Part shown: in pieces, positions 5,633 through 17,792 of the stretch
How the letters are laid out: every line of letters starts with the position of its first letter
Numbering within the stretch: the first letter of the stretch is position 1
From: an archaeon
Lineage (GTDB): Archaea; Asgardarchaeota; Thorarchaeia; Thorarchaeales; Thorarchaeaceae
Direction: 5' to 3'
DNA: 32,000 bases
Assembly (NCBI GenBank): GCA_024275415.1
Contig: JAJRZD010000049.1
Location: 17,614-49,613, forward strand
The notes under the pieces: model-generated
Seen by the model: the letters and a program-made list of their open reading frames with translations, nothing else
Databases searched by the model: none
Told to the model about the DNA's origin: nothing
Made by a program: the position numbers and the translations under genes

Positions 5633-7507
5633 TTGGTGAATGGTGGGTATACTGGCAAGATTCTACGGGTTGATTTGACCAAGGGCGATTTCAAGGTCGA
5701 GAGCCTTCCAACAGAGTGGGTTCTCAAGTACATTGGGGGAGATGGCTTTGCAGCTCGTCTGCTCTACGACGAGGTTCCTGCAAGGACAGATCCTCTGAGT
5801 CCCGAGAACAAGCTTCTCATTGCGACCGGCCCCATTACAGGCACATTGTGGCCGATGAGTGGTAGAACTGTCTTTGTTTCAAAGGCTGCCCAGACTGGGA
5901 TTTGGGGTGAAAGCCATGTTGGAGGATTTCTTGGCCCAGAGTTGAAATATGCTGGATATGATATGCTAGTAGTAGAAGGTCGTTCAGAGAATCCGGTTCA
6001 TATCTCAATCCATGATGGCGATTTGGAACTGATTGATGCAACTCCACACTGGGGGATGAGAACCGATGAGGTCACAGCAGCCATGCGAAAACACCATAAT
6101 GATCCTGACGTCCAAGTGGGCGCCATCGGCCCTGCTGGAGAACAACTTGTCCGATTTGCCTCAGTCATAGTGAACAATGCTAGAGCAGCTGGGCGGACAG
6201 GGATGGGTGCTGTCTTGGGCTCGAAGAATGTGAAAACCATATCCATTCGAGGACATGGGTCGGTGGAAGTTGCTGAACATGAGGAGTTCTTCAAGCTTGC
6301 AAAGAAGGCTCATCAAAAGGTTCGTCAAAATCCCCAGGCTCGTGAGATGGGTAAATGGGGTACATGGATTCTTACCGCTGTGAAACAGGAGATTGGCGAA
6401 CTTCCCACATTTAACCACCGGACTGGCGTCTTCTCTGGATGGGAATCTCTCAGTGGGGAGTATATCCGCCCTAGGTTCACAGTCAGTGACCGAGCATGTT
6501 TTGGTTGCTCTCTGGGATGCAAGAAGATGAACTACATCCCTGATGGGCCATATGCCGGCACGCTCGAAGAGGGGCCAGAATACGAAGGTCTGATGGCATT
6601 TGGCAGTCTGCTTGGAATTGACGACTATCCTACAACTCTCAAGGCGAATCAGATTTGCAACAAGTACGGGATGGATATAATCTCAGTTGGATCTACAATC
6701 GCTTTTGCAATGGAATGCTACGAGAATGGCATCATCGACGACTCGGATACCGGTGGTGTTCCACTTGAATGGGGAAATACGGAGTCCGCAATCAAGATTC
6801 TTCAGATGATTGCTTCTCGTGAAGGATTCGGTGACATACTTGCAGAAGGGAGCAAGATTGCATCCGAAAAGATTGGAAAAGGTTCTGAGGCGTACGCGAT
6901 ACATGTCAAAGGACTGGAGGTTTCTGGACAAGACGGTCGCACTCATCGTAGCATTGGGCTCTCACATGCAACATCAGCCAGAGGTGCGGATCATCTGAGG
7001 TCTCTGGTCGTCGTCGATCAGCTCGGTTATGAGAAGGTCGCGGCTGAACGCTGGGGTGTAGACAAGCTGCCTGAGATTCTCAATCCCTATACTGAACAGT
7101 ACAAGGCTACTGCTGTTGTCGAAACTGAGAACACATATTGCATCCGAGACACACTCATTGTCTGTTGGTACTCTGTATCGTGGCCCCCAGTATTCTGGAT
7201 GAGTGACTTTGCGGAGATGCTGCCTCTGGCAACTGGCATAGATGCGTTTGGCGATGTCACTACACTGGTTGAGATCGGTGAGCGTCAACTTAATCTGAAA
7301 CGGCTGTTCAATGCTCGGGAAGGGATTACTCGAAAGGATGATCAACTCCCAAAGCGGTTCACTCACGAGCCGATGCCTGAAGGACCTGGGAAGGGACAGG
7401 TGGTTGACCTAGAATCGCTTCTTGATGATTACTATAGGCTCCGGGGCTGGGATCCCGAAACAGGTTTGCCCACAAAAGAAACCCTGCGACGCTTGTCACT
7501 TGAATGA
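5633..7507 (+). CDS. aor: Tungsten-dependent aldehyde:ferredoxin oxidoreductase family protein (AOR/WOR)
   Basis: Motifs GKILRVDL, GGDG, ELKYAGYD, AAGRTGMGAVLGSKN, CFGCSLGC, GPEYE, CNKYGMD and RGADH are present; 624 aa. Confidence 0.93.
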   Translation: MVNGGYTGKILRVDLTKGDFKVESLPTEWVLKYIGGDGFAARLLYDEVPARTDPLSPENKLLIATGPITGTLWPMSGRTVFVSKAAQTGIWGESHVGGFLGPELKYAGYDMLVVEGRSENPVHISIHDGDLELIDATPHWGMRTDEVTAAMRKHHNDPDVQVGAIGPAGEQLVRFASVIVNNARAAGRTGMGAVLGSKNVKTISIRGHGSVEVAEHEEFFKLAKKAHQKVRQNPQAREMGKWGTWILTAVKQEIGELPTFNHRTGVFSGWESLSGEYIRPRFTVSDRACFGCSLGCKKMNYIPDGPYAGTLEEGPEYEGLMAFGSLLGIDDYPTTLKANQICNKYGMDIISVGSTIAFAMECYENGIIDDSDTGGVPLEWGNTESAIKILQMIASREGFGDILAEGSKIASEKIGKGSEAYAIHVKGLEVSGQDGRTHRSIGLSHATSARGADHLRSLVVVDQLGYEKVAAERWGVDKLPEILNPYTEQYKATAVVETENTYCIRDTLIVCWYSVSWPPVFWMSDFAEMLPLATGIDAFGDVTTLVEIGERQLNLKRLFNAREGITRKDDQLPKRFTHEPMPEGPGKGQVVDLESLLDDYYRLRGWDPETGLPTKETLRRLSLE

Positions 7508-9308: not shown

Positions 9309-9422
9309 TTACTACGTTCCAGCTATATTCAAAAAGCGGTATCGCTATTGTTATTCTCCCAGCTCAGTTCGTACTTAACGAGCTACACGGACTGTCCCAC
9401 GATTCTTGAGAGGGATTTTGAG

Positions 9423-12026
9423 ATGTCAGGTAAGAAACGCGGACTTCAAACACCTAGTACGGTAGAAGCGATTCGGATGGCCTCTGCTTCGATTCTTGGC
9501 ACTACTACAGGCAAAGGGTATCCGCTTGGGAGTGCAATTGGTACAGGTAGTAAGATGGAAGAGAATTCAGAGGATGTCGCCCTTCGTATCACGCCATTGA
9601 TTTTCTCATTACATGATGAGTTGCTCTCTTCTGAGAATCTAGAACTCCTTTCAATTGAATGGGATTTGGAAGGTGGACATGGACAAGAAGTATTACCTGA
9701 ACATCTAATTATCACCGGAGGGAAATTTGGTGATGTGTCCTCTCATATCTGCGCATTGAGTTGGGAGAAGGGTATCATCGATCCTTTCAAGATGGATTCC
9801 TATATCAGTGGGGTTGCGAAAAAGCTGTCTGATATTGAGCGAGCAATCATTGTGAACTCGCTAGAGTACGAAACTGATGGTATTATGATCTTGAAGCGTT
9901 TCTCCGACCGCTTCAATAGTGTGACCTTTGTAGAGATGCTTGACCGTCAGTTTCAGGAAACATGGGAGTCCCAAAAGGTAAAGGTCGAGAATGTTGATAT
10001 CGAAACAGTTCTGAAGTATGAATATCGGGATGACTTCGCATCTAATCCTCCCGGCCCCCGCATCCAGAGAAGAAAATCTGCCGAGTTCATGATGCCTGAT
10101 GCAAATGAAAATGAATTAGTACTCCATCTACAACATCGTCTTCTTTCACCAAAGGGGCTTGAAGCAATAGCATCACGTATCCCTGATATGGGACGGAATA
10201 TCCTTGCAGAACTCAACGAGTATGCATATAGCATAGAAGAGGTTGACATCGCACGGGCCGGCATTGCTGCTTTGGTTTCATTCCTCGGGAAAGAAGAGGT
10301 CACCTTATCTGAACTGTCTTATCTTGCCTCTCAGACAGGGGAGTTCTCCGAGGCCATGTCTGATACAGTTGATGCTCTTGCTGAGGTCTTGGAGCAGCAT
10401 GCGACATCAGGGAGCCGATTCACCATTGACGAACACCAGCAGGCACTGCTGTCTCTTTTGGAAAACCAATCTGACTATCTCAATCCACTTCAGATAGCAT
10501 TTGGGAAGGCACTTCTTGAGCACTTAGCCAAATCCATTCGAAGGGAATTCCCGACAGCAGAGGTTATCCGTGCTTGGGAACTAAAGGCTACCCTCTCCTA
10601 TTTCGTTGCCTTTGCAAGACGGGTTCTCGGATACATCTCCCGGGAGCTACAGCAGTTCCTTCAGCTGTCATCGGTTCACAGCATTATGCGTCAGACGCTG
10701 CAAGAGTTCAAAGATGAAGCGGAAGGCGAGATATCTGATCCCACTGAACTCATGCTGTTCCACAAGTTCTACTCTGAGCTGTATTCGTTGCTTAATGCGA
10801 TAATTGATAGAAAATCCTACGAAGGGTTTGAACGCAAACCCATCGAGGTTCTTGTTGATGAGATTACCAATGAAGTAAGTGGTGCATTCAAGTCAATCGA
10901 TGTCTGGGAGTTGATTGGTTTTGGAGATCTGGCTGAGATAGCCCGAACCGAGATTCAGTCGCGTTCTGATTCTGAATCACAGGCCGTTTCCAATGAAACC
11001 CTCCTATCTTTACTGTCGGACTATGAGAAGTTCGTGACCGAAACACTTCCAGATGTAGCTGAAACCTTCCTTTCGAAGCATTTTCTCACGGCCGTCATTG
11101 ACACGATGTCCGAAACAGAGGACGGTCTAATCGCTATCATACGGAGATTGATTGATGCTGAGTCTGAAAAGCCTGATGAGTGGCGCAAAGAAGCCGAACT
11201 CTGGCTTTCACAGCTTGGTGCGCTTATCGATGAATCAATGCCTCTTTCTGAAAAGCTATTCACCCTAATCAAATTAGCCTACATGCAGCTCGGGGAAGGA
11301 GTTTCTCCCGACAGTGTGATTGAAAGGATTCAAGAGGATACGAATGATTTGGAAACGGCATACAATGAGGAAGTCGAAAAATGGGTCGAAACGTGCCGAC
11401 AGATTGATCGGGAAAATGAACCTATACGCGAGAACAATGAGAAGCGTGAAGCAAAACTTGTTGAGGCTGTCAAGTCTTTTGAGGCAGAAATGAAACAGTA
11501 CGAGGAAGCTTTGGAATCTCACAAGCATTTGCTTGCAGCACACCAGCTCGAGGCGGACGGGTCTTCACCACCCCCTCCATCTCCAGAAAAACCCGAGAGC
11601 TTGGAGTCTAGACGGGCACGAATTGACAAGGAATTCCCAGAGATGGTGGAAAAGCAGAAACCTCCCAAGCCCGAACCATCTGAACGATTGATAATACACG
11701 CAGCTCTAAGGGATTTATTAAAAGAGAGCTTTGAGAAAATGAAACGAAGTCAAGAACGGATGGAGCAAGTGTTAACGCTTCGTCTTAGGGCTTTGAGGGC
11801 AGAAGGTGCAAAAATGGCTGAGGGATTGACCATTGGGATCAGCACAGGTTTCTTGGAATTCCTGATGAACTCCGAGATTAGAAAGCTCGGTCAGCTGCTA
11901 CCTCGGGTCAAAAGAGCGTACTTGCGAGATACTGACGATCCTAGCTTGGTCTATTTGGTCACTTATGAATTCCGAGGAAACATGCTTTCAGTTTCCATCG
12001 GGAACAATCTACTGAGGAGGCAATGA
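9423..12026 (+). CDS. Large unknown protein (867 aa): longin-like N-terminus, helical body, Pro-tipped coiled coil, small C-terminal alpha/beta domain
   Basis: Long uninterrupted ORF. ATG 9423 follows GAGAGGG. Its stop overlaps the next start (ATGA at 12023-12026). Domain calls rest on secondary-structure pattern only. Confidence 0.85.
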   Translation: MSGKKRGLQTPSTVEAIRMASASILGTTTGKGYPLGSAIGTGSKMEENSEDVALRITPLIFSLHDELLSSENLELLSIEWDLEGGHGQEVLPEHLIITGGKFGDVSSHICALSWEKGIIDPFKMDSYISGVAKKLSDIERAIIVNSLEYETDGIMILKRFSDRFNSVTFVEMLDRQFQETWESQKVKVENVDIETVLKYEYRDDFASNPPGPRIQRRKSAEFMMPDANENELVLHLQHRLLSPKGLEAIASRIPDMGRNILAELNEYAYSIEEVDIARAGIAALVSFLGKEEVTLSELSYLASQTGEFSEAMSDTVDALAEVLEQHATSGSRFTIDEHQQALLSLLENQSDYLNPLQIAFGKALLEHLAKSIRREFPTAEVIRAWELKATLSYFVAFARRVLGYISRELQQFLQLSSVHSIMRQTLQEFKDEAEGEISDPTELMLFHKFYSELYSLLNAIIDRKSYEGFERKPIEVLVDEITNEVSGAFKSIDVWELIGFGDLAEIARTEIQSRSDSESQAVSNETLLSLLSDYEKFVTETLPDVAETFLSKHFLTAVIDTMSETEDGLIAIIRRLIDAESEKPDEWRKEAELWLSQLGALIDESMPLSEKLFTLIKLAYMQLGEGVSPDSVIERIQEDTNDLETAYNEEVEKWVETCRQIDRENEPIRENNEKREAKLVEAVKSFEAEMKQYEEALESHKHLLAAHQLEADGSSPPPPSPEKPESLESRRARIDKEFPEMVEKQKPPKPEPSERLIIHAALRDLLKESFEKMKRSQERMEQVLTLRLRALRAEGAKMAEGLTIGISTGFLEFLMNSEIRKLGQLLPRVKRAYLRDTDDPSLVYLVTYEFRGNMLSVSIGNNLLRRQ

Positions 12027-14485
12027 ATATGTCAAGTTCCTGGTTACTCAAGACTCGCCAGATGAGTGAGGCTGGAAAAGAGATTATCCTTTCTGAGGCA
12101 TTAGCGACACATATGCGTAGCCCACGTGACCGGAAATTGGTAATGGGTGAGTTTGCAGAGAAACACCCACTGGAGGATCTTATCTCATTCTTTGGCGCAT
12201 TCTATCTCTATCACTATCAGGGTCTCCGACTTCTCCAAATCGATAGTGCTGACGATTTGTCAATTGAGGAAATGGAGGCGCTCACAAAGAAGGAACGAGA
12301 ACTTCTTGAGGTAGAGGTTCGAATGATGCTCGGAGAGAAGCAGCGAGAAGAGATTGATGTGAGTAGGATCTCCAGTGAGTTCATCGTTTCAATGTGCGAT
12401 TATCTCTTGGGTTCTGTCCCGAAAGATGACCGCGAATCTATCAGTGATGTCATTTCTCTTCTAAAGGATCATTTTCAAATGATTCCGACTTCCTATTCGC
12501 TGAATAGCGAGATTGATTTTATCAACGAGGTCGCCGGATGGGGCAGCACATGGCGTCGTGAACTATATGTTAAGGCATCTGGTCTCAAAGAGGCTGCATT
12601 GTCTCTTCGAGACGAGCTGCTCAAGCCTCATTATGAAGAGATTGTCGAGTCAACGGTTCTCCTGAAAGGGATTGAGAAAATCACAGGCCAAATTCGTCTG
12701 ATGTGCGGAAGGGTATTCACTGACGACCTACCCCGTGAACAGTGGGCGAAGGTCGCAGAGGCCGTCCTAGAACACTTCAGAAACCCCAATGTTTCTCTTC
12801 CTGCGCTCAGAGAAGCCAACCGGATTCGAATCTCAGTGATAGATGTCTTGGAACAGGAGATAGAAACCCCTATGACCTTTGAAGAGTACGAGTCCCTCCT
12901 CGTGAAGGTCATTGTTGAGGGGATAGGAAAGATTCCTGATGGTGTTGATCTTCTTGATACCCTTTCTTATTTTGTTGCAATACCATTGGATGATGTTCGG
13001 GCCGCCTTACGATCCAACAGGATTACGGATCCCTCCACGATCATCGAAGGTCTCAATGCAACCGTTGTTGACATGGACGCGTCAGAATCAGCAGAAACAT
13101 CCGATTCTCCATCGTTGAGTCAAGAAGAACTTGAAGAACTCACGCGAAACATAAGGCGCTTGGAGAAGATAGAGCATACACTGGAGAGACCTGTCAAGGG
13201 TATGTTGAAGGCGAAAGGACTGCGTGCTGCTGAGCTTGACAAGATTTCCATCGAGTTCTTGACTAAGCCCCGTTCATCTCTACTGGGTTTTGAAATCCAA
13301 GTCCTTGAAGAACTCAAGAAAAAAATACGGGTTCCTCCACCTGAGGAAATATCTCGTCTTCTTCAGCTTCGTGAGGAGTTCAAAAGTGGCTCACTTACTG
13401 GAGTTGAAATGTCTAGGTCTTCTGAATTGGGTCGGCAAATCCAGCATGGGAAGCATATGGTGACGCTAAGGGACGACTTGGTTTGGTTCTTTACTATTAG
13501 CATTCTGAAAAATCTTTCACGAGTTATTGAAACATATATCCGATCCAAGCATGACATTCAACGTTCAAAGACTTTGTTGAAAAGCATCTATGAAGACTCG
13601 AATACGCAACTCCAATTCTTGAGAGAAGAGATCTTGATTGACCTGCTGTCAATGAGACTGTACGAGATGAAGATGATTCACCCTGAACTCGATACCCAAA
13701 CAGTCTGCACTTGGTACCACGCTCGTTTGTCCAATACGGATCTCGATACAGCAAAGGAACGACTGGAAACCACCACCTCGCCTGTCTTTGGAGGAGTTGT
13801 CGATATGCCCTTGAAGCTATCCGAACTGAATTATGATAACTATGCCATCGCGTATGATCTTATGCAGAGGTTCCTTGATCGCCAACGGTCAGAACGTGAG
13901 GTTAGAATCGAAATAGTCGCCAAAACAAAAGAGGTTGAGAAGCAGAAGATTGCAGAGAAGAAGGCAGGCCTCGATGTCATGAATTTCATTTATACGAAGG
14001 CACACACCGTCTTCAGGGCTATCGGACGAGTCGGCGCCCGAGGCCTTGAATGGAACGCTAATGATGATGCGAAATGTGCGAACCTTTTGGCTTTCTTCCT
14101 CAACACAAGCCGCGGGCGTTCGATATGTGCTGTATGTGGTGAGGTTGCAAAGGATGGTGCCTGCAGTCTGCATGGCAAGGGACAGGTGAATGTTTCAAAT
14201 GACATCGACAATCTTTCGTGGTTTGTGATGCGTGCCCATACGGACATTAAAGAAGGATTGCTCGGTGCCAAGGCGGAACCTATGAGCTGGTCAGATGCAC
14301 GACAGATTGTCCAGAGGGAACTTGCCAATCTAAGACGACGCGGAAAAATCACGAGCAAAACCAACCCCAAGGAAATGATGCCCGGGGAAATCAACTACAT
14401 AGTGGGTCCTGCAATAGCGCGAGTAATCGGCAAATACTTCAATGAATCCTTGGAATATGCCGCTCGACGTGCTGGAATCGCCTAA
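12023..14485 (+). CDS. Large unknown alpha-helical protein (820 aa) with a C-terminal C2-CH zinc knuckle
   Basis: Long ORF coupled to the upstream gene by an ATGA overlap. CAVC-x8-CSLH lies at 14126-14173. Confidence 0.87.
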   Translation: MNMSSSWLLKTRQMSEAGKEIILSEALATHMRSPRDRKLVMGEFAEKHPLEDLISFFGAFYLYHYQGLRLLQIDSADDLSIEEMEALTKKERELLEVEVRMMLGEKQREEIDVSRISSEFIVSMCDYLLGSVPKDDRESISDVISLLKDHFQMIPTSYSLNSEIDFINEVAGWGSTWRRELYVKASGLKEAALSLRDELLKPHYEEIVESTVLLKGIEKITGQIRLMCGRVFTDDLPREQWAKVAEAVLEHFRNPNVSLPALREANRIRISVIDVLEQEIETPMTFEEYESLLVKVIVEGIGKIPDGVDLLDTLSYFVAIPLDDVRAALRSNRITDPSTIIEGLNATVVDMDASESAETSDSPSLSQEELEELTRNIRRLEKIEHTLERPVKGMLKAKGLRAAELDKISIEFLTKPRSSLLGFEIQVLEELKKKIRVPPPEEISRLLQLREEFKSGSLTGVEMSRSSELGRQIQHGKHMVTLRDDLVWFFTISILKNLSRVIETYIRSKHDIQRSKTLLKSIYEDSNTQLQFLREEILIDLLSMRLYEMKMIHPELDTQTVCTWYHARLSNTDLDTAKERLETTTSPVFGGVVDMPLKLSELNYDNYAIAYDLMQRFLDRQRSEREVRIEIVAKTKEVEKQKIAEKKAGLDVMNFIYTKAHTVFRAIGRVGARGLEWNANDDAKCANLLAFFLNTSRGRSICAVCGEVAKDGACSLHGKGQVNVSNDIDNLSWFVMRAHTDIKEGLLGAKAEPMSWSDARQIVQRELANLRRRGKITSKTNPKEMMPGEINYIVGPAIARVIGKYFNESLEYAARRAGIA

Positions 14486-14802
14486 GTTTCGGAGATGCTG
14501 GAACTTATCCACTCAAGGTACTTTGACAGACCTGACTTGATTCCTATCGTTATGAACTCGGGTGTTTCGTAAGGATGTTTCTCAAGCAGAGCATCCTGCA
14601 ATTCCGTTTCCATCTTTGCCTCAGTCTTCATTAGAAGGATTGCCTCTTCTTCATCCTCAATCTCACCTTTCCAGTGGTATATGCTCCTGACACCTCGAAT
14701 GATATTCACACAGGCGCATTTGCGCGCCTCGACGAGTGCTTTTGCGATTCTGACTGCATCCTTCTCCAGACACGTTGTGATAGCTAAGATGTAATCTGAC
14801 AT
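14482..14802 (-). CDS. cutA: Divalent-cation tolerance protein CutA
   Basis: MSDYILAITTC...LVEARKCACVNII...SIYHWKGEIE...E...MKT...HPYETPE; 106 aa from the ATG at 14802. The track's 228-aa version is an N-terminal overextension. Confidence 0.93.
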   Translation of the reverse strand: MSDYILAITTCLEKDAVRIAKALVEARKCACVNIIRGVRSIYHWKGEIEDEEEAILLMKTEAKMETELQDALLEKHPYETPEFITIGIKSGLSKYLEWISSSISET

Positions 14803-14916
14803 GAGTGTTGTATTCTGAATGGTGGTATAAATCCTTAGACCATTCTCGAACAGGTCTTTAAGAAACATATATACACAAGTCATTTTTGATAGCGAGTGTA
14901 AAAAGGGTGACTTGTT

Positions 14917-16314
14917 ATGGGAAATAGGTTTGCTCCCAAAGGAGTGATGCCTGCCTTGGTGACTCCATTCACAAAGGACGGCGATATCATTGAAGAGAGC
15001 TATAAGGCAATCATCGATTATACTATTGACAAGGGTGCGACTGGTGTCGTCCCCGCGGGAACCACGGGAGAGTTCGTCTATATGCGGACTGAAGAGCGAA
15101 AAAAGCTTCTTCGCCTCACTGTGGAATTTGTGGATGGGAGAGGTCCAATAATCGCTGGAACTGGTCAAAACAGTACTGATGCAACAATCGCCCTTACCAA
15201 ATACGCGGCTGATATCGGCTGTGATGCAGCACTTGTCATTTCTCCTTTCTATTTACGTCCTAGTGACAAGGGTTACTACGAGCACTATGAATCTGTTGCT
15301 ACCAGAAGCGACCTGCCTATCATCTTGTACAACATCCCTCAATGCACCCTCGGTGTCATCAACTCCCCTGTCGTTGAGGATCTTGCCGAGCTGGATAATA
15401 TCGTAGGGATAAAGGACAGTAGCGGTTCCATCGGGCATACTGTCGAACTGATTCAGAAACTCGATGGCAAAATTCCTGTGATTATAGGACATGATGAGTG
15501 TTTCCTCTCTGCGGTTTCGGCTGGTGCCAAAGCCGCCATTCTTGCGTCGGCAAACGTCATCCCACACATCTGGCTTCAGATTATGGAGCATATTCACGAT
15601 GGGCACATAGATGAAGCGATGAAGTTGCAGCATCGTGCACAGACCTTTGCAAGGATTGTCACAAGAAATGGTGGTGCACCTCCGGTGAAGGCTGCACTGA
15701 AAATGCTTGGGTTGAAAGCTGGCAAATCTAGAATGCCATTGGACTCAGGTGGCACCCTTTCTGTAGAGCTGAAAGATGAGATTCGTTTGGAGCTTGAGAG
15801 ATTGGGACTTCTGGATGACCCCCCCTCTCCCCCTGTTGATTCTTCAATCAGTATTGAAACAATCCTCTCAGATGAAGGGTTCTCCCTTGGGGCAGATGTC
15901 AAGTTTGGCTCAGGTGTTGCAGATATGGTTTCGGTAAGCATTGCCATAGGATCCAAAAATGGTGAATTGGGTCGCGCCTTTGTAAGATTGCTGACAACCC
16001 CGAAAGTCGGACAGGAGGCGTTGACCGTCATTCTTGAGCCCAATCTTGCAGTAAGACCAAGCAGCATCATGCTACCCACAAGAGCGATCACGTCAATGCG
16101 ACAAGCATCCCTGTTCTATGGTCCTGTCCAATCAGGTGCTGCAAAGGCTCTTTCTGAGTTCCTTGAGAACGGTCGGATTCCTGAGGAATCGATAAGAAAT
16201 GATGTTGCTATTCTGGCAATAGACATAGACCTTCAATCCCATCTCAGGCGGGAGGTCACTGCCCAAGCCAAACAAGCAGTCCTTGGTGCTCTTAGTGAGG
16301 TGTGGAGGGAATAA
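14917..16314 (+). CDS. DapA/NAL-family class I aldolase fused to a degenerate formaldehyde-activating enzyme (Fae)-like domain (paralogue A)
   Basis: Aldolase motifs: ALVTPF, GTTGEF, IIAGTG, SPFY, LYNIP, GIKDSSG. C-terminal ~135 aa: AFVRLLTTPKVG...VILEPNLAVRP...RQASLFYGPVQSGAAKA matches the Fae core. Confidence 0.88.
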   Translation: MGNRFAPKGVMPALVTPFTKDGDIIEESYKAIIDYTIDKGATGVVPAGTTGEFVYMRTEERKKLLRLTVEFVDGRGPIIAGTGQNSTDATIALTKYAADIGCDAALVISPFYLRPSDKGYYEHYESVATRSDLPIILYNIPQCTLGVINSPVVEDLAELDNIVGIKDSSGSIGHTVELIQKLDGKIPVIIGHDECFLSAVSAGAKAAILASANVIPHIWLQIMEHIHDGHIDEAMKLQHRAQTFARIVTRNGGAPPVKAALKMLGLKAGKSRMPLDSGGTLSVELKDEIRLELERLGLLDDPPSPPVDSSISIETILSDEGFSLGADVKFGSGVADMVSVSIAIGSKNGELGRAFVRLLTTPKVGQEALTVILEPNLAVRPSSIMLPTRAITSMRQASLFYGPVQSGAAKALSEFLENGRIPEESIRNDVAILAIDIDLQSHLRREVTAQAKQAVLGALSEVWRE

Positions 16315-16316
16315 CA

Positions 16317-17792
16317 ATGAGTGAGAAGTTCAGGTTCAAAGGTGTCTATCCGGCCCTTATTACGCCCTTCAATGAAGACGGTGTTGATGAAGAGAAATAT
16401 AGGGGTCTAATTGACTATGTGATAAAATCTGGTGCTACAGGGATTGTCCCGTGTGGCACAACAGGCGAATTCACCTCTATGCGATTTGATGAGAAGGCTG
16501 AGGCGATTCGTATCGCATGCGAAGCAGCAAAGGGCAAGGTTCCTGTAATCGCGGGAACTGGTGCCGCCTATACAGGTGATGCCATAAAGCTCACAAGGCG
16601 TGCCGTAGAGTTCGGAGCTGATGCTGCATTGGTGGTTTCTCCATACTTCTTGAAGCCCTCGAACAAGGAGATATTCGAGCATTTCGAGAAGGTTGCTAAC
16701 AACTCCGACATTCCAATCTTTGTTTACAACATCCCTCAAGTGACTGGCGTGCCGATCCACTGGACAGTGATTGATGGCCTGAGGGAGATTGATGGTATCA
16801 TCGGGCTCAAAGATTCTAGCGGGGATCTCGTGAATCTGACTACCGTGCTGGTTCGTAAACCCGAAGACTTTCAGGTCGTCGTAGGACATGATGAGGTCGC
16901 CCTCCCTGCTCTAGCAAGTGGTTGTGATGGTGCGATACTTGCAAGCGCAAACATCTTTCCAAACAGGTACCTTAAGATGCAATCCGCTCTGGCAAGTGGA
17001 GATTTGAAAGAGGCACTCCTCATCCAGAGAAGCATTCAGAAGACGGTCAGGATTATTGTTAACAAAGGTGGAGGTCTTGCAGTAAAGACTGCGCTCAACA
17101 TGATGGGTATTCCTGTGGGTTCAGCAAGAGGCCCTCTTCTTGAGGGTGACCTGCTCTCGTATGAGGATATCGACGAACTTCGTACATGCTTGGAAGACCT
17201 CCAATTGATTCCGCGTGGGTCGGTCACATTTCGGATGGGCGACAAAACCATCGTTGCTGAAGGATACCCAAAGGCGGTTGGTCTGGTTCCTGATGCCGTG
17301 GACGACCTCACACTATTGCATGGAGAGGCTCTCACGGGAGGTGGTTATGAAGTAGCCCATGTTGATCTGATTATGGGCATTCGCGGAGGACCTATCGATT
17401 CTGCTCTTGAATTAGCTGGTCAGATACGCGAAGGATATCACAGTTCCAATATCATCAATGACTTGGAGCCTGAAACTGTGTTTGCACCCACAGTCACGAT
17501 AACCCATGAGAATCATAGGCGCCTAGTCTATGACATCGCTCAAAAAGCAGTCATTGACGCAGTCAGGCGGACGATAACGGATGGTGTGATCCCTGATGAA
17601 CTTGTGCCAGATCTGGTCATTGCAGCCAATGTGTTTGTGCATCCCAGTGCTGTGAATGCCCGAAGAGTACACATCAATAATTTCAGGGCCGTGCGTCATG
17701 CGATACGACGTGCAATCGAGGGACGACAACCTACATCTGAGATAGTTGCACGAAAGGAGTCTGCCCGACATCCATTTGCGTACAACCCCTAA
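16317..17792 (+). CDS. DapA/NAL-family class I aldolase fused to an Fae domain (paralogue B)
   Basis: Aldolase motifs: ALITPF, GTTGEF, VIAGTG, SPYF, VYNIP, GLKDSSG. C-terminal HGEALTGGGYEVAHVDLIMG...VFVH...RHAIRRAIEG...ARHPF matches Fae (GEALxGxGxEVAHxDLxxG...HPF). Start at ATG 16317 after GGAGG. Confidence 0.9.
   Translation: MSEKFRFKGVYPALITPFNEDGVDEEKYRGLIDYVIKSGATGIVPCGTTGEFTSMRFDEKAEAIRIACEAAKGKVPVIAGTGAAYTGDAIKLTRRAVEFGADAALVVSPYFLKPSNKEIFEHFEKVANNSDIPIFVYNIPQVTGVPIHWTVIDGLREIDGIIGLKDSSGDLVNLTTVLVRKPEDFQVVVGHDEVALPALASGCDGAILASANIFPNRYLKMQSALASGDLKEALLIQRSIQKTVRIIVNKGGGLAVKTALNMMGIPVGSARGPLLEGDLLSYEDIDELRTCLEDLQLIPRGSVTFRMGDKTIVAEGYPKAVGLVPDAVDDLTLLHGEALTGGGYEVAHVDLIMGIRGGPIDSALELAGQIREGYHSSNIINDLEPETVFAPTVTITHENHRRLVYDIAQKAVIDAVRRTITDGVIPDELVPDLVIAANVFVHPSAVNARRVHINNFRAVRHAIRRAIEGRQPTSEIVARKESARHPFAYNP

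Follow-up and report, generated by a model that had tools for sequence, protein, structure and literature searches.

Fae (EC 4.2.1.147; PF08714, TIGR03126), represented by the M. extorquens structures 1Y5Y and 1Y60, is a free-standing 170-aa protein that forms a homopentamer with five identical sites. Methylene-tetrahydromethanopterin (methylene-H4MPT) is reportedly bound in the cleft between adjacent Fae subunits, where the C-terminal arm is said to become rigid, Gln88 to flip and His22 to act as the acid catalyst. Here we describe two adjacent genes, A and B, in a 32,000-nucleotide stretch of DNA (the window) from a Thorarchaeaceae genome (GCA_024275415.1, contig JAJRZD010000049.1), whose products carry domains of the same fold family. 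Unlike in Fae, these domains are fused behind aldolase barrels and the residues of the site are split between the two chains. Sequence patterns and a complex model together make it probable that A and B are subunits of a single enzyme, an obligate heteromer with a composite Fae-type site. The two genes meet as follows:

14917-16314, plus strand: gene A (P0001), an open reading frame for a 465-aa fusion of a DHDPS-like aldolase and a Fae-like domain
16317-17792, plus strand: gene B (P0003, read from its ATG), an open reading frame for a 491-aa fusion of a DHDPS-like aldolase and a Fae domain
16304-16319, plus strand: the A/B junction, with GGAGG at 16304-16308 within the end of A, the A stop codon TAA at 16312-16314 and the B start codon ATG at 16317

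In both proteins the Fae domain makes up the C-terminal third of the fusion. Gene A matches PF00701 with 255 bits (residues 7-276) and PF08714 with 83.5 bits (residues 338-460); its 119 homologues share 64-75% identity and are 452-489 aa long, except for one 442-aa fragment. Gene B matches the same two families with 248 and 103.9 bits and has more than 100 homologues at 65-83% identity. The frame of B is also open from a GTG at 16302 (the version P0002), and the ATG at 16317 fits better as the start because the B homologues are 491-492 aa long. Only 2 nt separate the stop codon of A from the ATG of B, with the GGAGG 8 nt 5' of this ATG, a layout that suggests translational coupling. A scan for promoters and terminators gave chance-level counts. 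A and B are the sole Fae homologues found by a search of the genome (3.5-Mb assembly, 92.9% complete), and also its sole DHDPS-family genes.

Comparison with M. extorquens Fae (1Y5Y) and 12 Asgard Fae-Hps enzymes placed the Fae motifs at the following positions, each by motif mapping:

15892-16311, plus strand: Fae-like domain of A, the putative cofactor-pocket half (PF08714, motif alignment and predicted interface)
15919-15942, plus strand: ADMVSVSI in A, in place of the His motif, with Ser where the His sits
16030-16047, plus strand: ILEPNL in A, kept
16096-16131, plus strand: MRQASLFYGPVQ in A, kept (GPVQ region)
16219-16233, plus strand: IDIDL in A, in place of FxHP, which is lost
17319-17789, plus strand: Fae domain of B, the putative catalytic half (PF08714, motif alignment and predicted interface)
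17319-17333, plus strand: HGEAL in B, kept
17349-17369, plus strand: EVAHVDL in B, kept, with the equivalent of His22
17451-17471, plus strand: IINDLEP in B, where the PNL loop is shortened by a 5-residue deletion
17523-17543, plus strand: LVYDIAQ in B, replacing GPAQ (FGPAQ in Fae)
17628-17645, plus strand: NVFVHP in B, kept
17760-17789, plus strand: SARHPFAYNP in B, the C-terminal arm, kept

The match to PF08714 covers profile positions 13-135 of 159 in A and 2-158 in B, both above the cut-off of 27, and the alignments to 1Y5Y have E-values of 1.8e-8 (A) and 1.1e-21 (B). Counted along 1Y5Y as chain index + 1, the His of VAHIDL is residue 22 and the Gln of GPAQ is residue 88. Protein A ends in ...VWRE and lacks the C-terminal HPF arm. 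His22 and the cofactor pocket are therefore not found within one chain in either protein, only in the two taken together. This division agrees motif by motif with an earlier note on this DNA, which had read B as keeping GEAL/EVAHVDL and VFVH/HPF with GPAQ lost and the PNL region shortened, and A as having lost the His motif and HPF tail with ILEPNL and GPVQ kept. The interval given there (15900-17789) also spans the whole aldolase domain of B, and the fusion went unmentioned.

The partition extends well beyond the window. The retained motifs are at least 95% conserved among 120 Thor-family A and 112 Thor-family B homologues. In a phylogenetically spread sample of 29 A, 30 B and 10 single-copy (S-type) sequences, the His motif is present in 0/29 A and 29/30 B, FxHP in 3/29 A and 30/30 B, and the C-terminal arm in 0/29 A and 30/30 B; conversely, the PNL and GPxQ motifs are each present in 27/29 A and 0/30 B. 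All ten S-type sequences have every Fae motif. The complementarity proposed in the earlier note is thus not a chance feature of one genome, being all-or-none across these diverse sequences. The decay is asymmetric: out of 59 columns conserved in canonical Fae, 33 are kept in B and 19 in A, which places B much closer to Fae.

A prediction of the complex, run on the A and B Fae domains only and each with its own alignment (three runs, three controls), supports binding between them, short of proving it. The pair reaches an ipSAE of 0.85 against 0.00 for the best control; 58 of 80 solved complexes attain the mark applied to this score, as do 2 of 110 mismatched pairs. At least 84% of contacts recur across the runs, and the partner pLDDT is about 81. 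On the A side, the predicted interface comprises residues 347-384 (helix 1 and EALTVILEPN), 394 and 427-430. On the B side (P0003 numbering) it comprises 330-339 (GEAL), 350, 352, 358-377 (a helix), 388-394, 436-443 (VFVHP), 461 and 465. In this model GEAL, D350/L352 (beside the His) and VFVHP of B lie against residues 355-376 of A, so that the His face of B packs on the PNL face of A.

Conservation follows these two faces. Taking the B interface residues of the model as face X and those of A as face Y, B keeps eight of the ten canonical-conserved columns that belong to face X only and A keeps one, whereas A keeps four of the seven that belong to face Y only and B keeps none. Within the A clade, conservation is 0.42 on X versus 0.64 on Y (Mann-Whitney p 0.006); within the B clade it is 0.75 on X versus 0.44 on Y (p 0.0001). 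Both faces are conserved (X/Y) in canonical Fae (0.80/0.76) and in the S-type (0.76/0.65). These observations suggest that each paralogue is constrained only on the face that would form the B:A contact. The predicted complex and the column counts thus bear out the expectation of the earlier note that the retained residues would lie on two faces of one site, and motifs, faces and complex model together lend support to its proposal of a composite A/B site arising by subfunctionalisation.

We further note that the two genes travel together. In a sample of 201 Asgard genomes, Fae hits are found in 40 of the 43 Thor-family genomes, and exactly two hits, A and B, in 37 of these 40, as the earlier note would expect of an obligate heteromer. 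Five Thor-family exceptions with one or no Fae hit were re-checked: three are contig-end truncations, one has only a partial B-like copy, and in the fifth the A/B pair was not found. A is thus neither commonly lost nor pseudogenised in relatives, since the exceptions are mostly truncations at contig ends. In all seven lineages examined, A lies directly upstream of B. These include the Thor family (the window, L016, L017 and L018), two further Asgard families (L014 and L015) and, outside Asgard labels, a locus labelled Korarchaeota/Thermoproteota (L021), one labelled Anaerolineae (L019) and one from an unassigned archaeal assembly (L023). In L021 and L023 the end of A and the start of B share 4 bp. 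Other Asgard families have a single aldolase::Fae gene of about 500 aa, the S-type, with intact motifs and usually alongside a canonical Fae-Hps.

A maximum-likelihood phylogeny with DapA-like proteins as the root recovers A and B each as a single clade (support 87 and 99, respectively), and the intact S-type falls with B (support 82). The Thor-family branches are long (0.57 for A and 0.65 for B). The simplest history is that an intact fusion duplicated once and the copies then lost complementary parts; the split pattern predates the divergence of several archaeal lineages. At 50% identity the whole family falls into more than a dozen clusters; its listed homologues number in the hundreds, and most of them come from Asgard archaea. 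A full-text literature search found no publication on a DHDPS/DapA-Fae fusion, and Fae in Thorarchaeota appears there in passing mentions only.

We infer the following scheme. An ancestral aldolase::Fae fusion with a complete Fae domain, of which the single-copy form persists in other Asgard families, would have been duplicated once, and the inter-subunit Fae site would then have been divided between the copies. B would have retained the face that carries the acid catalyst (EVAHVDL, with the equivalent of His22), together with the strand of GEAL, VFVHP and the C-terminal arm; A would have retained the other face, made up of helix 1, the loop of ILEPNL and the pocket of GPVQ with the equivalent of Gln88. 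The full tetrahydromethanopterin/formaldehyde site would be rebuilt only where the His face of B meets the PNL face of A, the reverse contact being degenerate. Strict alternation of A and B is impossible in a ring with five members, and the reverse contact seems to be under relaxed constraint; the assembly is therefore probably not a pentamer. Unlike the classical homopentamer, the Fae module would most likely consist of one A and one B domain that share a single composite site. The aldolase barrel most likely makes or uses formaldehyde beside this site, by analogy with Fae-Hps. The same genome encodes Mch (420 bits) and Ftr (177 bits), which indicates that the host uses H4MPT.

Several points weigh against this scheme. 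Across all 59 canonical-conserved columns (8 kept in both, 11 in A only, 25 in B only, 15 in neither), complementarity is not significant (Fisher p 0.17) and is confined to a few motif blocks, so we rely on the motif and face tests; the 15 positions gone from both copies also count against it. On the NCBIfam equivalog model for Fae (TIGR03126, cut-off 118.05 bits), A scores 75.2 and B 114.9 bits, both too low to pass, and the chemistry may therefore have drifted. GPVQ lies outside the confident contact residues of the complex model, the predictor may have reproduced this interface from having learned the solved Fae pentamer, and the face-conservation test is partly circular because the model was built from the same alignments. 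In some Thor genera (L016, 3766-5232; L018, 4049-5515), the Schiff-base Lys (now GLSDASG) and the Thr-Thr pair (now CASLGEF) are missing from B and kept in A, and in L023 (4544-7446) this Lys is gone from A and B alike; all these proteins are still full-length. The coupled-aldolase part thus cannot hold family-wide. Finally, the heteromer and its composite site are read from sequence and a model.

Some of these same observations would also fit a real A/B heteromer whose composite pocket has given up the Fae reaction, either to bind another pterin or ligand or to serve the barrels only in assembly or regulation. The columns missing from both paralogues, the two sub-threshold equivalog scores, the long Thor-family branches and the persistence of the proteins in lineages where one or both copies lack the aldolase Lys all lean this way. 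We nevertheless judge this unlikely. What A and B retain between them is exactly the equivalents of His22, Gln88 and the C-terminal arm, to which we ascribe catalysis or cofactor binding in Fae; H4MPT enzymes are present in the organism, which has no Fae besides this pair; and on the Fae profile the intact single-copy relatives reach about 190 bits.

The asymmetry of decay raises the further alternative that B is the sole working Fae, a homo-oligomer with a remodelled pocket, and that the Fae-like domain of A is a non-catalytic remnant serving folding or the aldolase. B keeps many more of the canonical columns than A and lies barely below the equivalog cut-off. Against this, 30/30 B sequences are without the PNL loop and the GPAQ Gly-Pro, which 27/29 A sequences keep across distant lineages, the PNL-side face of B is poorly conserved, which would be unexpected if a homo-oligomer used both faces, and A is present wherever B is, contig ends apart. 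We regard this alternative as a little less likely again than a heteromer without Fae chemistry. Simple decay of one copy into a pseudogene, which the earlier note had already argued against, is very improbable: the Fae domain of A is indeed the more degenerate, but both frames are intact, the listed homologues are full-length except for fragments (64-83% identity), the pattern is older than the split of several archaeal lineages, and the near-invariance of the retained motifs contradicts decay.

The features of the two aldolase barrels, by residue mapping, are:

14935-15744, plus strand: aldolase barrel of A (PF00701, 255 bits)
15058-15075, plus strand: GTTGEF in A, the Thr-Thr pair, kept
15241-15261, plus strand: SPFYLRP in A, with Tyr107 kept
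15325-15348, plus strand: LYNIPQCT in A, with Tyr133 kept and Cys in place of Arg138 of DapA
15406-15426, plus strand: GIKDSSG in A, the Schiff-base Lys, kept
16335-17150, plus strand: aldolase barrel of B (PF00701, 248 bits), with the Thr-Thr pair and Tyr133 kept
16638-16658, plus strand: SPYFLKP in B, with Phe for Tyr107; the Arg138 position of this barrel is Val
16803-16823, plus strand: GLKDSSG in B, the Schiff-base Lys, kept

Databases name both A and B as DapA, an enzyme of lysine synthesis (4-hydroxy-tetrahydrodipicolinate synthase; TIGR00674, EC 4.3.3.7). Both pass the NCBIfam dapA cut-off of 206 (226 and 234 bits), the closest solved barrels are DapA structures (e.g. 3HIJ and 1DHP, E 6e-52), and both barrels share with DapA the Schiff-base Lys161, Tyr133 and Thr44/45. 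Arg138, which DapA has and which binds aspartate semialdehyde by its carboxylate, is never seen in A, B or the S-type: its position is Cys in 116/120 Thor-family A and Val in 103/112 Thor-family B sequences, and Cys, Leu or Val in the S-type, and in the alignment to 3HIJ this region reads PQCT against PGRS. No DapB_N match was found in the genome (92.9% complete), in a search whose control was positive in 12/14 genomes. We therefore reject a DapA identity for A and B, and the database name is probably wrong, for these two proteins and for the whole aldolase::Fae family. Tyr107 of DapA reaches into the active site of the partner subunit. Among Thor-family sequences, the Schiff-base Lys is present in 120/120 A and lost in 4/112 B, and Tyr107 is kept in 108/120 A and replaced by Phe in 109/112 B. 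Since A keeps Tyr107 and B has Phe, with loss of the Lys in some B, A looks like the catalytic aldolase and the B barrel looks to be decaying.

A tentative proposal for the chemistry, of which we are doubtful, is that the A/B complex is a formaldehyde-channelling 4-hydroxy-2-oxobutanoate aldolase whose product is transaminated to homoserine for threonine and methionine synthesis. Methylene-H4MPT would give up its formaldehyde at the composite Fae site (or formaldehyde would be captured there), the A barrel would join formaldehyde to pyruvate (or split the product), and 4-hydroxy-2-oxobutanoate would be transaminated to homoserine. To our knowledge, the conversion of pyruvate and formaldehyde to homoserine has so far been described only in engineered pathways of the 'homoserine cycle' type. 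The support is circumstantial. Homoserine dehydrogenase (PF00742) was not found in the source genome and is present in 3/41 Thor-family genomes (1/20 of high quality, against 14/14 for the control), whereas threonine synthase (thrC) scores over its cut-off in 35/41, the source genome included. The retention of threonine synthase without the dehydrogenase in most Thorarchaeota hints at a route from pyruvate and a C1 unit. Homoserine dehydrogenase is almost wholly missing from Asgard families f1, f12, f13, f21 and f27. On the other side, the anticorrelation between fusion and dehydrogenase across the phylum is partial, some lineages lack the aldolase Lys, and related genomes are not independent observations. 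A strict replacement of homoserine dehydrogenase by the fusion was considered and rejected, since families f9, f16, f8 and f18 have both.

One further protein, encoded in the source genome outside the window, lies near several of these genes:

L039:1477-2772 (G000:C122:35186-36481): a 432-aa orphan protein with no Pfam match and no usable hit in an atlas search

The orphan is 60-79% identical across Asgard families. Its model (pLDDT 83) shows a TIM barrel preceded by a helical N-terminal domain, with only weak generic matches to TIM barrels such as DAHP synthase and aminomutases (TM about 0.3-0.4). Its gene immediately precedes the S-type fusion in f9, f24 and f27, adjoins a thrC-like gene in Thor-family genomes, and at one f22 locus (L070) forms an operon with an aminotransferase, homoserine dehydrogenase and an aldehyde:ferredoxin oxidoreductase (AOR). 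A distance of 2-7 kb separates it from homoserine dehydrogenase in eight further genomes of f5, f22 and f25. Its distribution does not strictly track that of the fusion. In one Thor-family genome (G075, L073:2715-4193, minus strand), the thrC-like gene encodes about 500 aa comprising a PALP (PLP-enzyme) domain and a C-terminal PadR-type regulator domain, with a weak N-terminal match to DUF7129, and an ECF-type riboflavin transporter S component sits between it and the orphan. An aldehyde:ferredoxin oxidoreductase (AFOR_N and AFOR_C) of the type that ends the L070 operon is also encoded in the window (5633-7507, plus strand), 7 kb upstream of A, which may be a coincidence.

The neighbours of A and B in the window, namely CutA, an LPG-synthase-like membrane protein, an M20 peptidase and two large open reading frames, give no functional clue. 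CutA1, a divalent-ion tolerance gene, lies divergently from A (14482-14919, minus strand); its true start is probably further downstream than that of the longest open reading frame (TTG at 15168), which would overlap the 5' end of A. On the far side of CutA, two plus-strand open reading frames of 892 and 820 aa (9348-12026 and 12023-14485) overlap by 4 nt, neither with a Pfam match at E <= 0.001. Outside the Thor family, a second protein without a Pfam match recurs beside the fusion genes; with the query used, it was not found in the source genome:

L015:2349-3287, L008:2304-3251 and L014:2039-3058, also L009, L003 and L004: a neighbour of about 312 aa, from neighbourhood comparison

If the split-site heteromer is correct, A and B would offer a clear-cut example from nature of an inter-subunit active site shaped by duplication, degeneration and complementation: a homo-oligomeric C1 enzyme would have turned into an obligate two-gene enzyme. 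The pair is the only Fae-type function in Thorarchaeota, which bears on reconstructions of the H4MPT branch of the Wood-Ljungdahl pathway in Asgard archaea, and it offers a testable candidate for the missing homoserine route in this group.

Among known systems, Fae itself provides the reference for the site: the equivalents of His22, Gln88 and the C-terminal arm are all present once A and B are combined, and the inter-subunit position reported for its site matches that proposed for A/B. An alternating arrangement of A and B is geometrically impossible in a five-membered ring like that of Fae. Fae-Hps (NF009833), a fusion of Fae to a formaldehyde-handling enzyme that occurs in methanogens and many Asgard archaea, offers the best precedent for a C-C lyase coupled to Fae. 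Unlike A and B, its partner is a C-terminal hexulose-phosphate synthase and its Fae domain is complete (about 230 bits). A and B score 65 and 86 bits against NF009833, over the Fae part only and below its cut-off of 274 bits; other Asgard families encode Fae-Hps in a gene of 400-430 aa, whereas Thor-family genomes lack it and have the A/B pair only. The S-type fusion (L003-L012 and P0243, with one cluster labelled Lokiarchaeota) has the same two-domain architecture and likewise lacks Arg138. It differs from A/B in holding all Fae motifs in one chain, with both faces conserved and no paralogue beside the gene, and in its motif content it looks like the ancestral state before the split. Trypanosoma brucei deoxyhypusine synthase is a heterotetramer of one impaired and one dead paralogue. 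It is a conceptual analogue only, with an unrelated fold and chemistry and from a eukaryotic parasite, and the likeness to A/B lies in an inter-subunit site completed between two degenerate paralogues.

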